DNA of 64,000 nucleotides from NCBI GenBank assembly GCA_017499595.2, contig CM039001.1, positions 2,728,001-2,792,000 on the forward strand, in the 5' to 3' direction. Positions 7,263 through 13,000 of this stretch are shown here, piece by piece; positions within the stretch are counted from its first letter, which is position 1, and each line of letters starts with the position of its first letter. The stretch is from Psilocybe cubensis. Taxonomy: Eukaryota. A program made the position numbers and the translations under genes. The notes beneath the pieces were generated by a model. That model had not been told where the DNA came from. It did no database searches and saw only the letters and a list, made by a program, of their open reading frames with translations.

Positions 7263-9696
7263 CTAGTCATGGTGGTCACTAGTCTCTTCATCTTCCGTAG
7301 AATGCAATGCCTGCAAAATTTGTTCTTGACGGAGCCACTTCTCTGGTGGTGTGAAGTACCAACAACAGACGGCGAAGATAGTGATGCTCCCAAATATGAC
7401 ACATGCCTACGTTCAAGATCATAAATGTGAATCAAATAATTCAAAGAGAACACCCACGAAGTTGAAGTTCTCCGCAGTGACAGGGAAGTAGAAAGGGGAG
7501 AGCATGACCTAGACGAAAACTAAGACGCAAAATACGCGTAAATAAATGTGGTACTTACGGATACAACCAAAGCATTGAACAGAATGGTTACAAGATAGAA
7601 TAACTTTCTATACTTGCCAAGGTAGAAATAGGATGTTTTAAAACTGTTCGGGGTCAGGGTAAATCGCAAGAGAGCAATTAAACCGTAAGCCGCAATCGTT
7701 GGGACACCACCAGCAGAGACGAGCGACGTAAACGCGACTTGACTAGGCAGAATGCTGCAAAGAAGTGTAGCTGCAAAAAGATAGATGACCGTGACCGCAT
7801 GTTTAGGTTGCCCTTTTTCATCGACCTGCCCGATCCATTTCGACATCGGAAGCACACCATCGCGAGCGACTGCAAATACCAAGCGAGAAGCTGCCACAAT
7901 GGCGATGCTGGTGTTCTAAAAGGAAATTAAGTCACCAAAGGACAAAAAACTGGCTCGTATTTACCAAGATCAGGCCAATGACAGCAATGATAGTCATGAA
8001 GATGCTGGCCCTCTTTCCCAAAGCAACAGCGTAAAGCTGAACAAAAGGCTGAGGAGCGTTGGTAGCAAAGAAGACATCGAGGCTGGGAGTACAGAAAAGG
8101 AAAAGTATTGCTGTTACGAATCCCAAGACGCCAGTAGCGATGGCGCTTGACAAAATACCCTTTCCTGCTATGACTCTGATTATATCGCTGAGTATCTGAA
8201 TTGTAACGAAATTAAAAAATGCATAAATACCTTGCATTCTTGGTTTCTTCTGCGATGTGACCAGAGGCGTCAAATCCGGTCATTGTCCCAGCAGTGAAAA
8301 GGCTAAGTTACTGGTCATTAAGGTGAACAGTTGAGGCAAACAAAACACACACAAAGATAAAATCCAATTCCAACCAGGAGGGGCACCAGTTTCGTTAGCT
8401 GTACAAATTATGAGATCGTGATTTCTAAGTTAGTGTCTGTCCACATTACCTGTCTGGAGGAATACATCATGTGCAGATCGGAAACCGTACGTTTTCGACA
8501 CCCCAATGGGAAGCCAGATCAAACAAAGGAAAAAGTCCAGCATCATGATAAAGATAGACGCTCGGAAGACAAGAGAGTATACCCGTGGCGGGAGATAATT
8601 GATGGCAACCGCGAGTAGCAGCAGTCCTTCCGAAATGACCCAGATCAAAGACCGCCACTTGATGTTGTCGTTGCCGACACCTCCAGGATAGTCAACGTCC
8701 CAAACAGCTAGTTGGGAAACGATATAGTTGGCAGTTGTCTGGGAAAAAATTCTTAGCACAGAGTCAAGGCCAATTTCAATTGCGCTGGCAGACCTGACAA
8801 TTTCCAGCAACAAATGTCATCCAGGCGGTGCAAGACCACCAGGCAACTGTAAACCCAAAGAACCTAGCGTATTTGGGACCAGCACTCTCAGCGGCCCAGA
8901 TATAGATAGACCCGCTGAGTGGTAGTGCCGAACATATCTCAGCCAAAACGGCTGCTGTGATTGTCATAAATACTATAGTGATCAGATAAGAAGACCTGAG
9001 CTATATAAGCAAGGGGGTGGTAGCAAACAAAAAACACTGTCACCATATTGCAGCAGGGCCACCCGCTGATAAACCAAGAAAAATAGCCGATCTTGAAGGC
9101 AAGATAAGCGCCTGAAGCGTTTCCTAATAAGGGATATATCCATACCTAACTCCCCCAATAAAGTTTAAAGCACAGAAACTCGCAGCAAAACTCTCGACGA
9201 TGCTCCATGTACGATGAAGTTGCTGCAAGTGCATATTGTAAACTGGGGAAGAGCACTCGATACTGTGACAACATAACTTACTTGTTTGTATCCAAGGCTT
9301 TGCTATCAAAACCGCATGTTAGTGGTCCATGAACATCTTCGAGAGGGTAAAAAAGAACGATGACACTAGGAGGCTTCCCTACGCAGGTATAAGCGCTGTT
9401 CAGGTTCAGGCGGTATGATCTCAATCGTCCTGTGATTGTGTCTTGCTCCAAAACGTATGCGTTTTATCATATCGTTACTAGTTTAGAACAACACCAATCA
9501 CAGTCGGATACCCGCAGCCATGCCAGTGATCACCAGTTGAACGTTACCGTTGAAGCAGCTATCTTTCTCGTAGGTCATCTCCCAGGCACGTCTTTAGCAC
9601 AATTACCAATTGAAGCTCGTCCTGGTTTGTGGGAGGAGTTGAACCTGTTTCTTGACCTGCAGCCGACGCGGAAAATTTTGTATCAACGGAAGACAT
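7263..9696 (-). CDS. APC-superfamily permease (GABA/choline permease-like; probable thiamine or thiamine-precursor transporter, Thi9-like)
   Basis: DELQLQSLGYKQQLHRTWS, VLAEICSALPLSGSIYIW, GFDASGHIAEET, AASRLVFAVARDGVLP; many TM segments; TPP riboswitch in intron 1. Confidence 0.9.
9361..9532 (-). promoter_or_regulatory. TPP (thiamine pyrophosphate) riboswitch in intron 1 of the APC permease
   Basis: Minus strand reads GGCT-GCGGGT...TGAGATCATACCGCCTGAACCTGAACAGCGCTTATACCTGCGTAGGGA-AGCC. P1 GGCT/AGCC (extended by CACTGG/CTAGTG), P2 GCGG(G)T/ACCGC, long P3 CTGTGATTG/CAATCACAG, UGAGA junction, P4 CCT/AGG, P5 CAG/CTG. Confidence 0.93.
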
Positions 9697-9766
9697 GGCA
9701 CTTAGGCCGAGAGCGGTAGCAGTAGAAGGAAGAAATGAGTGAAATGGGATAAAACAGCATCTCCCC

Positions 9767-10077: not shown

Positions 10078-13000
10078 CTAAGGGATTCCAAAGCGCTAAA
10101 TAATCAATTATTAGAAACAGACGGAGATGACACTGCACATGAAATTACATACAGATTTTAATCCACGGATAAGGAGCCATTCCTCGTTGGAAACATCAGC
10201 CTTGAAAGATGTCTGCAAACAAATAGTAAGATAAGGAGTACGTTGAAGCATAGAGCCAAGTATACCTTCAATACGTCAATACTTTGGCGAGTGATATGAC
10301 TCAGAATTTCATCCTTTTCGTCGAAGTGACGGCCGAACATCTTTGCGGATTGATAAACAGCATGCTCGATTTTAACAGCAACACCAGCTCCAGCCTGAGA
10401 TTTTTTAACAATCTAGAGAATATTTTTTGTAAGGTTTCAGAAGGCAATATCGAGGAACAAATGCCACTTGCATCATAGGTCTTGTGGTTGATTTCCAACG
10501 ATGTACTAAAAAAAGTCAACAATTAGTCAGTAATTTGTTTCATAAGGGCGTACATCTTTCCAAGGTCAATGATATCTTTCTTCCCGGTAGTAGGATCGAT
10601 CTTCACGACACATAACGGTGTACCAATTCGCAATGATCCATCGAGAATGTCGACTCCAAGAATGATCGGATCTCGCTTACAAAACGCAGCGATTACTTTT
10701 AGACGACAGGGCCAAACGGCCTGAGGAGCAGCGTCTCTTCTTTTGGCTTCTGTAATTTCTGCGTTATATGCTTTGAAGGAGTCGAACAAGTGATAGATAA
10801 TATCGGCTAGTTGTAATTTTAGCACGCTTGTACCGCTACCAAGCGATAAACACAAAGTCATACCTTTGAAGAGACGGATACCCATTTCTTCGGCCAAACG
10901 CTCAGCTTCTTTGTCGATAGGAACGTCGAAGCAGAGAATACAAGCAAGTTCTTTGGCCTTTTCTAGCATGGTTGAGGCGCGCATGACATCTCGTTTAAAC
11001 ACGGGACCGATGTTGATTCCAGATACGGGGATTTTGCTGCTCTTTAAGAAATCCAGCAGAGCCTCGAGCGAACCCAAAGTGGACGCCTGTACACAAACAC
11101 CGCGGCCCGACTTGTCGATGTTTTCAAAGAGCGTAGTCAGATCAGACATGACTTCCTCCTTTAGTTCATCCTCATCGTCGTCTGGCCCAACGACAAGCAG
11201 GCGAGAACCAGCAATTGCCTTTTCCAAGTCCGGGGCGGTAATCTTGACACCAAGAGCTGCCTTAACCTCTTTATGATGAACGTACGCAGACTGAGACCAA
11301 GGTCAGAATAATCAGCCATATTACGATATCTCATGCTTACTTTAATACGAAGTTCGCGCAGGGGTTGCGGTGTCAGCAGTGCCCTGACTTGCGTTACGAT
11401 AGGTCCGTTAAGACCACAGACAACAATTTTATCGCCTTCGCGTAAGATGCCATTCGAAAGGACTACATCAATTGTTGTGCCAAGACCTTCAATGACCTTG
11501 ACTTCCAAGACAGTACACTCCAGCTCGGAGAGGTACATCAAACGATCGCTCATACGTTGTTGCGTCAAATTGACGAGGAGCATAATCATATCTGGCACAC
11601 CTTCTCCTGTGATAGCTGAGGTAGGCACCAAAGAAACATTGCGACCAAGGTTCTTGTTTTCGTAGTAAAGGCAAGCGTTGAGACCTTCTTCAGCAAAAGC
11701 CAATATGGTTTTAGACACCCGATCTTCAAATTCACGCTGCACAGAGCGGGACTGTTTGGCCAAAGACTCCTGGAAAGCACCGTCTGGTGTGGCATCCCAG
11801 CCATAAATACGATCGATCTAAAGAATAAAATGAGACCTGAAATTCGAGTTCACAAGGGAATTCCATACGCACTTTGTTGAGCGCAACTATAAATGGAGTT
11901 TTGCGATCTCGCAGAAGCCGCAGAGATTCGAGCGTCTGAGCTTCCAAGCCATGCATGATATCAACAACTAAGATGGCAATATTACACAAAGAACTTCCAC
12001 GAGATCGCAAGTTAGTAAACGACTCGTGTCCCGGTGTATCAATAATCAAAAGACCGGGAATCTTATATTCTTGTTGATTTTCCTATAACCGATGGCCTCA
12101 GAAGAAGATGCGATAACAAAAGAACAAAAGAATAATATATACCCTGTTGAGGACAGCAGTCTTCGTCTTGATTGCATCAACGGGGAAGTACGTAGCACCA
12201 ATCTGTTGCGTGATACCTCCCGCTTCGCCTTCTTGGACGTTGGTTTGACGAATCTGTTAGATAGGGTTAAAATCAGAAAATTTTCAAGTTACAAATTCTT
12301 ACTTTATCCAGCAATTTAGTTTTACCCGTGTCGACATGACCCAAAATACAACAAATAGGGCTGCGTAGATTGTCTTTACTCCTAGCGGCCAAAGCTTCCT
12401 GGTGTGCTTTTGCACGGCGGGCGGCTGCCTCGGCCTTCTTCTGCGCAGCCAACCTTTGGGCAGAGGTCAACTCGTCTTCAGACGAAGAATCATCGGAGTC
12501 AGAATCAGAATCCTCGTCAGAGTCTTCCGAGTCTTCCTCTGAAGAAGATTCTTCTACTGGTGGCTTAGCAGACGGAGCAGGCGGTTTAGTGGAAAGGCCT
12601 TTGACAGTTGTAGATGGTGCAATCTTTCCAGAGACAGGTTTTTCTGTCTTTGGAGCAGGGGCAGATATTTTCGATACGGGAACTTCCTTGGGTGCAGTTT
12701 TCGCTGCTACTTTCACAGTGATTGATCAGCGAAGTCAAGTAAGCAAAACTTTTACAACTTACCAGGTCTCTCATCCACTTCCTCTTCCTCACTTGTTGCA
12801 TCCCAGGAGTCTTTGATGTTGGAAGCTACAGGAGGCGAAGGCTCTTCGTCAGAGCTTGCTTCCCAGTCAGATTTTGGGGCATCATTAGTTTCTTTTGCCG
12901 CCGCCGGCGTAGATACTCTGGCCACCATAGGCTCTGGCGATCGCGGCCGTGAGTGAGTTGGAGATTGATCCTTAGCTCCAGGCCCTTTTTTCTTGCGATT

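Follow-up and report, generated by a model that had tools for sequence, protein, structure and literature searches.

A stretch of 64,000 nucleotides of the Psilocybe cubensis genome (GenBank assembly GCA_017499595.2, contig CM039001.1, positions 2,728,001 to 2,792,000 of the forward strand; hereafter referred to as the window, whose own numbering we use) carries on its minus strand a gene for an amino acid permease. The first intron of this gene (9606-9303, 304 nt) contains an element that we judge to be a thiamin pyrophosphate (TPP) aptamer, preceded by two candidate 5′ splice sites, and we consider it likely that the intron is a TPP riboswitch that controls splicing through two mutually exclusive folds. 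By its protein matches the host gene belongs to the APC superfamily. Three of the four downstream exon-sized open reading frames that we tested matched AA_permease_2 (Pfam PF13520), two of them above the curated cut-off (E-values of 9.1e-13 and 7.6e-07) and one below it (8.3e-4), and the fourth had no match. A search for homologues of a permease exon returned 267 proteins at E≤1e-5 (656 candidates), all with PF13520; the closest was a P. cubensis ‘putative amino-acid permease’ with 99% identity over the query exon. We call the permease Thi9-type because basidiomycete orthologues of Thi9 are reported to carry riboswitches (PMC5997356, which cites Moldovan et al. 2018).

All features described below lie on the minus strand. 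The coding part of exon 1 (9607-9696) starts with the ATG at 9696-9694 and comprises 30 codons in an open frame, which end in ...DELQL with a complete last codon, TTG, at 9609-9607. Donor 1, the productive 5′ splice site, follows directly (TTG/GTAATT, the slash marking the cut; 9601-9606, with its G at 9606). Donor 2 (ACG/GTAACG, with its G at 9547) sits 59 nt past donor 1, a distance that is not a multiple of three, and is part of the block ACGGTAACGTTC (9539-9550), which is conserved in the orthologue alignment. Between the two donors the exon 1 frame runs into a TAG at 9561-9559, after 45 codons (135 nt) counted from the ATG and 15 sense codons past donor 1; this TAG would end translation of donor-2-spliced as well as intron-retaining RNA. 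Downstream of the aptamer are a candidate branch site, ACTAAC (9318-9323), 15 nt before the acceptor and aligned with ACT(G/A)AC in the orthologues, and the sole 3′ splice site of intron 1, the AG at 9303-9304. The intron thus has two candidate donors upstream of the aptamer and one acceptor downstream of it, which is the layout of the NMT1/Type III kind of platform. An earlier note on this DNA had placed the two donors, the TAG and three segments complementary to the aptamer (read on the minus strand), and every coordinate that it gave was correct.

Exon 2 is a microexon of 21 nt (9282-9302) encoding ..LGYKQ, the 3′ end of which is set by the joint 9222/9282 in the RNA contig X1. The full-length orthologous proteins P0008, P0081 and P0047 have an exon-1-like end, ...DE(L/I)QL, followed by the microexon residues ..LGYKQ and then by QLHR.... 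Joining 9607 to 9302 preserves the frame and yields the same ...LGYKQ... N-terminus, and the agreement with the full-length orthologues in exon-1 end and microexon residues confirms 9607>9302 as the productive junction. A fully spliced transcript contig from a relative (L011, 1818 nt) contains the productive exon 1-microexon-exon 3 junctions.

The putative TPP aptamer occupies 9372-9519. At gathering score, Rfam gave no match in the whole window; in E-value mode, RF00059 was the only Rfam match in 9200-9750, with 23.4 bits and an E-value of 0.025 (the gathering score is 54.3). In this alignment the 3′ half was perfect and the core letters were placed at high posterior, while P1-P3 were misplaced by the model. 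We therefore placed the helices by hand around the long P3 hairpin (approximately 9503-9428), which folds on its own: P1 (GGCU 9519-9516 with AGCC 9375-9372), P2 (9515-9508 with 9416-9410), P4 (9404-9401 with 9381-9378) and P5 (9398-9394 with 9387-9384). All of the 19 pairs so enforced in P1, P2, P4 and P5 are canonical. The conserved core is present, with UGAGA in J3/2 (UUGAGA in the window), ACC in P2′ and the P4-P5 domain ...GAACCUGA...GCGUAGGGA, and P1-P5 can all be formed. P3 variability is described as hampering the detection of fungal TPP riboswitches by generic models (PMC11683625); among 20 orthologous loci that we scanned, the one that passed the RF00059 gathering score was L041, which has a short P3 (55.0 bits). 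Across 64 of 80 orthologous loci this core hardly varies. By its core motif and its orthology, rather than by its Rfam score, we identify the element as a TPP aptamer, which presumably binds TPP.

P1 can be extended by a further helix, here called P0 (9524-9537 with 9355-9369), in which CACUGG and GGUGA are matched by CUAGUG and UCAUC past an internal loop. The P0 strands ACUGG...CCAGUG recur across the orthologue alignment.

The orthologous loci were collected from metagenome contigs with an alignment of the conserved fifth exon (237 stretches matched, 136 relatives, 80 loci kept). The motif of the aptamer 3′ half was found in 64 of the 80, approximately 400-480 nt upstream of the matched exon. 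The 16 loci without it comprise 12 with less than 450 nt of upstream sequence (including the spliced transcript L011), two with variant motifs (L048 and L049) and two with a decayed aptamer (L066 and L078). The conserved microexon follows the aptamer in 53 of the 64 loci, and the dinucleotide directly before it is AG in all 35 loci where our script placed the microexon. The exon-1 end followed by GT was identified in 49 of 65 sequences (48 loci and the window), which gave 43 unique introns.

Little of the sequence between donor 1 and the aptamer is conserved in these introns, the exception being a block, (A/T)CGGTAACGTC, which contains donor 2. The sequence GGTAACGT is exact in 35 of the 43 unique introns and occurs as a near variant in six (GGTAACCT in three, GGTAATGT in two and GGTGATGT in one). 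The two remaining introns, L021 and L046, lack the block and keep the aptamer. In all of the 41 unique introns that have it, the block offers a proper GT donor preceded by G at -1. L066 and L078 have lost both the aptamer, which is decayed, and the donor-2 block; because the two were lost jointly, we think that block and aptamer work together.

Two side observations concern the exceptional introns. A third GT (CUG/GUGAUC, at approximately 9533 in the window) lies within the 5′ strand of P0 and is the sole proximal donor candidate in L021 and L046. In L066 (1330-1880) and L078 (580-1130) the intron is kept, UGAGA and GCGUAGGGA are mutated, GGTAACG is gone and the microexon residues are altered (..LG(I/V)KP); these two loci may represent a paralogue or come from a lineage no longer under TPP control.

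The segment between the donors contains a strand, GGGAG...CCUACG...GCUG(C)UUCA...CGGUA (9544-9585), that is complementary to the 3′ half of the aptamer (9366-9420), which consists of J3/2, P2′, P4, P5, P4′, P1′ and 6 nt further. The two pair in the RNAduplex optimum as well as in the minimum free energy (MFE) and centroid structures of the whole intron. CCTACG at 9574-9569 is complementary to CGTAGG at 9383-9378, GCTGCTTCA at 9559-9551 to TGAACAGC at 9402-9395, and CGGTA at 9549-9545 to TACCG at 9415-9411. These three segments are nested in the correct antiparallel order, and RNAduplex, given the upstream strand and the aptamer 3′ half, returned precisely them, together with GGGAG:CUCC just 3′ of P1, at -28.8 kcal/mol. 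The window duplex has a z score of -1.84 against 100 dinucleotide shuffles, which taken alone is a modest advantage over chance, suggestive and not decisive. The case for the complementarity rests on the orthologues for this reason.

In the orthologous introns, evaluated with RNAduplex against 100 dinucleotide shuffles each, the native duplex was better than the shuffle mean in 40 of 40 cases. The z scores averaged about -2.1 and lay between -0.45 and -4.78; 19 of the 40 were below -2. The predicted helix has a layout common to all 40. A G-rich, GGGAG-like piece at its start lies opposite the C-rich tail immediately after P1′; next come a CCUACG-, CCUGCG- or CUUACG-like piece on the invariant CGUAGG, a GCUG piece on CAGC of P5 and CGGUA of the donor-2 block on UACCG of P2′, with GUC at +6 to +8 on GAU of J3/2. 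The complementarity is thus conserved.

Since RNAduplex optimises the pairing of whatever strands it is given, we tested co-variation by swapping partners among the introns. The summed energy of the 40 native pairs was -1469.2, as compared with a mean of -1423.0 (standard deviation 13.8) for permuted pairs, and 4 of 10,000 permutations reached the native value. When the set was reduced to 14 representatives, one for each group and with upstream strands less than 70% identical, the native sum was -505.1 against -471.2 (standard deviation 8.8), and 2 of 20,000 permutations reached it; relatedness among the orthologues inflates both tests. Two-sided changes occur at variable columns of the aptamer: A-U in 5 and U-A in 20 introns (J4/5), C-G in 27 and U-A in 5, U-A in 9 and G-C in 12, and C-G in 28 and U-A in 5. 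A consensus fold by RNAalifold of the MAFFT-aligned sequences between donor 2 and the 3′ flank was not usable (-13.1 kcal/mol, fragments of P2 and P5 only), because the P3 region is unalignable. These comparisons convincingly indicate that the upstream strand and the aptamer 3′ half co-vary and that their complementarity is real. Covariation across orthologous introns had been named beforehand, in the earlier note, as a check on the proposal, and the segment can now be described, on comparative grounds, as the expression platform of a TPP riboswitch conserved in Agaricomycete orthologues.

Pairing was also compared column by column, as secondary evidence that rises only modestly above shuffled strands. 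The paired fractions of the aptamer columns were 0.45-0.81 for the native strands and 0.37-0.69 for the shuffled ones. A clear excess was confined to J3/2 (0.59 versus 0.37), P2′ (0.73 versus 0.49) and the tail past P1′ (0.80 versus 0.40), and the 5′ strand of P4 was less often paired than in shuffles (0.45 versus 0.61). The complementarity of P4-P5 to the flank of the proximal donor is conserved, with a modest excess over shuffles.

Both the complementarity and the second GT might have arisen by chance, with the aptamer inactive or acting by another route and the upstream segment having no structural role. The statistics of the window alone would fit such an account: in addition to the duplex value given above, the fold of the intron by itself, which has the long helix in its MFE and centroid structures, reaches -88.4 kcal/mol with a z score of -2.13, and 3 of 100 shuffles were equally good. 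RNAduplex also pairs shuffled strands extensively. Coincidence, however, would have to produce negative z scores in all 40 introns evaluated, native partners that are so rarely equalled by swapped ones, a block that stays exact in most introns amid fast-evolving intron sequence, and the joint loss of block and aptamer in L066 and L078. We regard it as very improbable.

Splicing from donor 2 would be disruptive in every case that we modelled. Of the 40 motif-bearing unique introns that were evaluated, 30 have an in-frame stop ahead of donor 2, and the remaining 10 would add a stretch between the donors whose length is not divisible by three; all eight of the extensions that are multiples of three contain a stop. 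When the donor-2-spliced form was followed in a model across the microexon and into exon 3 for 75 nt, a premature stop appeared in 24 of 24 loci. The other 19 of the 43 introns fell outside this modelling, three having no motif, five no detectable microexon and 11 no detectable exon 3. The claim of the earlier note that use of donor 2 truncates the protein therefore extends from the window to the 24 loci modelled.

We propose the following mechanism. At low TPP, the strand 9585-9544 between the donors would zip up with the entire aptamer 3′ half, J3/2 through to slightly past P1′. The resulting long helix would bury the donor-2 block and loop out the aptamer 5′ half together with P3. Donor 1 would thereby be brought near the branch site and the acceptor, so that splicing uses this site and yields the complete permease mRNA. 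At high TPP, the aptamer would close on its ligand and prevent the long helix, and productive splicing from donor 1 would fall. The RNA would then be spliced from donor 2 or keep the intron, and in either case would meet the TAG at 9561-9559 after 45 codons, so that no permease is made. TPP binding, the direction of regulation and the identity of the prevailing non-productive product are inferred here; the direction follows the precedents of NMT1, THI4, NCU01977 and DUR31.

Folding of the window sequence predicts both states. Left unconstrained, 9625-9285 has the anti-aptamer fold as its MFE structure (-100.6 kcal/mol). The CCUACG:CGUAGG pairs are all preserved there and G9547 of donor 2 is paired, with the register slightly displaced near GCUG and donor 2. 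The fold with the aptamer enforced has -91.3 kcal/mol and thus costs 9.3 kcal/mol relative to the free MFE, a gap that ligand binding and the co-transcriptional order of folding could bridge. The candidate branch site is predicted to be unpaired in the window in both states.

The accessibility of the splice sites was modelled for 37 orthologous introns, the closed aptamer being represented by an enforced P1 with a blocked interior. The mean probability that donor 2 is unpaired was 0.44 in the free state and 0.40 with the aptamer closed, and it was higher in the closed state in 14 of the 37 introns. The values for donor 1 (0.43 versus 0.38) and the branch motif (0.47 versus 0.49) were hardly altered. 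When the aptamer of the window is enforced, donor 2 finds a downstream partner, its GGUAA pairing with UUACC at 9350-9346. Equilibrium secondary-structure modelling thus gives no sign that folding in the TPP state would free donor 2. The earlier note had proposed that the platform masks donor 2 without TPP and frees it with TPP; the second half finds no counterpart in these models.

A UUACC or ACUUACC motif lies 20-40 nt past the aptamer in a number of the introns; TTACC is found within 50 nt in 21 of the 43 unique introns, for example in the groups of L018, L038, L044, L053 and L041. We take this motif to resemble the 5′ end of U1 small nuclear RNA. On the folding models, it may be a mask of the 5′ splice site in the ligand-bound state, or it may be a chance occurrence within the pyrimidine tract.

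RNA evidence came from two sets of contigs, X1 and X2, which were taken as RNA for their GT..AG joints and for which growth conditions were not recorded. The first record of X1 (1730 nt) lacks five introns, at 8399-8449, 8739-8793, approximately 8994-9041 (the fourth intron, with a cut ambiguous by 2-3 nt), 9092-9145 and 9223-9281, and then continues unspliced from 9282 to 9467, through the acceptor of intron 1 and into the aptamer. It could also stem from a transcript that starts inside intron 1. The second record (156 nt) is unspliced from 9713 to 9558, across donor 1. A gap in cover from 9468 to 9557, which includes donor 2, P0-P2 and the 5′ side of P3, separates the two X1 contigs, which are not linked to each other, and X2 covers 8916-9222 only. 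RNA containing intron 1 sequence thus exists in transcripts from which other introns have been spliced. Two further candidates, X3 and X4, were rejected as independent RNA support; they are unspliced, near-identical contigs of the whole stretch, are probably DNA and may be the very source of the window sequence.

A related observation was made in L057 (3563 nt), where six downstream junction peptides are contiguous, their introns being absent, yet intron 1 is present with the aptamer and the donor-2 block. This contig is either a metatranscriptome transcript that retains intron 1 or part of an intron-poor genome that has kept only the riboswitch intron.

The lack of any modelled opening of donor 2, together with the contigs that retain the intron, keeps alive a model in which retention is the only regulated output, as in DUR31 and NCU01977. 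The helix would then promote the use of donor 1 at low TPP, and at high TPP the intron would be retained, with translation stopping at the TAG and the RNA probably degraded; the donor-2 block would be conserved as the partner of the invariant J3/2-P2′ or as a decoy for U1, and not as a regulated splice site. This model accommodates the fact that the sole RNA contigs keep intron 1 at both of its ends with the downstream introns spliced, the state of L057, and the persistence of the aptamer without GGTAACG in L021 and L046. Conservation of the block also exceeds the splice consensus and reaches positions +6 to +8, where the duplex predictions for 21-25 of the 40 loci place GUC opposite GAU of J3/2. 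A precedent exists in Candida parapsilosis DUR31, where unspliced RNA increases with thiamin and use of the second donor is not regulated (PMC5997356). Against retention as the only output stands the block itself, which has the form of a proper GT donor, with G at -1, in every unique intron that has it. It is also relevant that the sequence between the donors never makes an open in-frame insert; this would be expected if donor-2 splicing takes place and has to be non-productive, but is weak evidence since retention needs stops too, and the contigs are compatible with a minor donor-2 isoform. We think it rather unlikely that retention is the sole regulated outcome.

Our preferred reading, a splicing switch with two mutually exclusive folds, must itself be set against several of the above results and some others, all of which weigh against it. 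The aptamer of the window falls below the RF00059 gathering score, as do 19 of the 20 orthologous loci scanned. The window duplex alone is only a modest improvement on chance, the paired fractions of native and shuffled strands overlap and P4 shows a deficit, and donor 2 does not open in the closed state, in which it has an alternative partner in UUACC. Neither of the junctions 9607>9302 and 9548>9302 was found in the contigs of X1 and X2, which can attest presence and not absence. The contigs show retention of intron 1, so donor-2 splicing may be minor or absent, and in DUR31, the single transporter intron of this layout to have been studied by experiment (PMC5997356), the second donor is not regulated by thiamin. 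We conclude that the comparisons among orthologues give the structural switch good support, and that the presumed regulated use of donor 2 competes with intron retention as the OFF output.

The TPP riboswitch of Neurospora crassa NMT1 was reportedly described by Cheah et al. in 2007. According to PMC3597705, P4-P5 masks a 5′ splice site in both NMT1 and THI4. The intron described here resembles these N. crassa systems in that P4-P5 would pair, without TPP, with the flank of a proximal alternative donor, the distal donor being the productive one. It differs in lying within the coding sequence and carrying an in-frame stop, whereas the NMT1 intron is in the 5′ untranslated region and acts via upstream open reading frames; it differs also in that the complementary strand here additionally spans J3/2, P2′, P1′ and positions further on.

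Closer relatives are found among transporter genes. TPP riboswitches in amino-acid-transporter genes are widespread in Basidiomycota (Mukherjee et al. 2018, PMC5882874), and the group named TPPsw-AA is predominant in this phylum, with Type III as the second most frequent mode of regulation (ACS Omega 2024, PMC11683625). Type III regulation is defined by an internal intron of 200-400 nt with two donors, an in-frame stop between them and one acceptor, and PMC5882874 states that this mode has not yet been observed experimentally. The present locus shares with the TPPsw-AA/THI9 Type III cases the APC/amino-acid permease host, the phylum, an internal coding intron of the given size (304 nt here), the two donors, the in-frame stop and the single acceptor. 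It differs from them in nothing of kind and adds one more species; the description available there is generic and comes without a base-pairing scheme. We therefore place the locus in the TPPsw-AA/THI9 group, as an additional member with the Type III layout.

A second comparison is with the coding introns of the transporter genes NCU01977 and DUR31. For NCU01977, a long-range alpha-alpha′ helix has been demonstrated and the alternative products carry stops (PMC3597705). The Candida DUR31 intron has two donors with a stop between them, and thiamin raises its unspliced form (PMC5997356). Our intron is like these in its host, a transporter gene, in non-productive products with premature stops, and in having a strand near donor 1 that forms, with the aptamer's 3′ side, a long-range helix favouring the distal donor; the unspliced form is a major OFF product of DUR31, and retention is what the contigs show here. 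NCU01977 and DUR31, in contrast, encode DUR3-like urea-type transporters and have introns of 550-900 nt in which alpha pairs with P1′ only, whereas the intron of the present APC permease has 304 nt and its helix extends over the whole aptamer 3′ half, including P1′ and the 3′ flank. It works partly like the NCU01977/DUR31 alpha-alpha′ platforms without being one of them.

The earlier note had spoken of NMT1-like logic that acts through a stop in the coding region. The layout is as it said, but the coding-region stop is not new, being part of the Type III prediction and of the experimental results for NCU01977 and DUR31. What may be added here is the scheme of pairing from J3/2 to past P1′, its co-variation and the near-invariance of the donor-2 block, and these may already be in print (Moldovan et al. 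2018; supplements of PMC5882874). We found no literature on riboswitches or thiamine that names Psilocybe cubensis, which is no proof of absence from print.

The platform may also be an undescribed hybrid, which we put forward as a tentative and less likely possibility. A single full-length anti-aptamer strand, conserved in Agaricomycetes and reaching from J3/2 to past P1′, would both mask the proximal donor, as in NMT1, and clamp donor 1 beside the branch site in the manner of NCU01977. Intron retention would give the main OFF product, and the near-invariant donor 2, which is below the splice consensus (GUAACG), would serve chiefly as a pairing partner or as a U1 decoy.

The gene upstream of the permease, on the same strand, encodes eIF5B (10158-11817 in the window; PF11987 IF-2 with an E-value of 2.7e-16, and EF-Tu domain 2). 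Dozens of Agaricomycete gene models join the permease to this neighbour in proteins of 1270-1800 amino acids with IF-2, GTP_EFTU and AA_permease domains; because such fused models occur across many genera, we regard the eIF5B-permease synteny as conserved. Public models of the permease are often wrong at the riboswitch intron (9282-9720 in the window), for example those of the proteins P0001, P0013 and P0005 among others. The P. cubensis model has 447 amino acids and begins within exon 5, so that the N-terminus is missing, and the Gymnopilus model P0013 reads through the aptamer as protein (..IEIIPLEPEQRSYLR..). The riboswitch intron accounts for the permease models being so often truncated, fused to eIF5B or translated across the aptamer.

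General knowledge of how eukaryotic riboswitches work is unchanged by this locus. It provides a first RNA hint that intron retention is a real output of such an intron. Type III control in basidiomycete transporters has been predicted and, according to the papers cited here, not tested, and this locus, together with some 40 orthologous introns, turns the prediction into a model at the level of base pairs. The model specifies the nucleotides of the anti-aptamer strand, the positions that co-vary with them, a near-invariant donor-2 block, and stops or frameshifts throughout, and thereby makes the mechanism directly testable.

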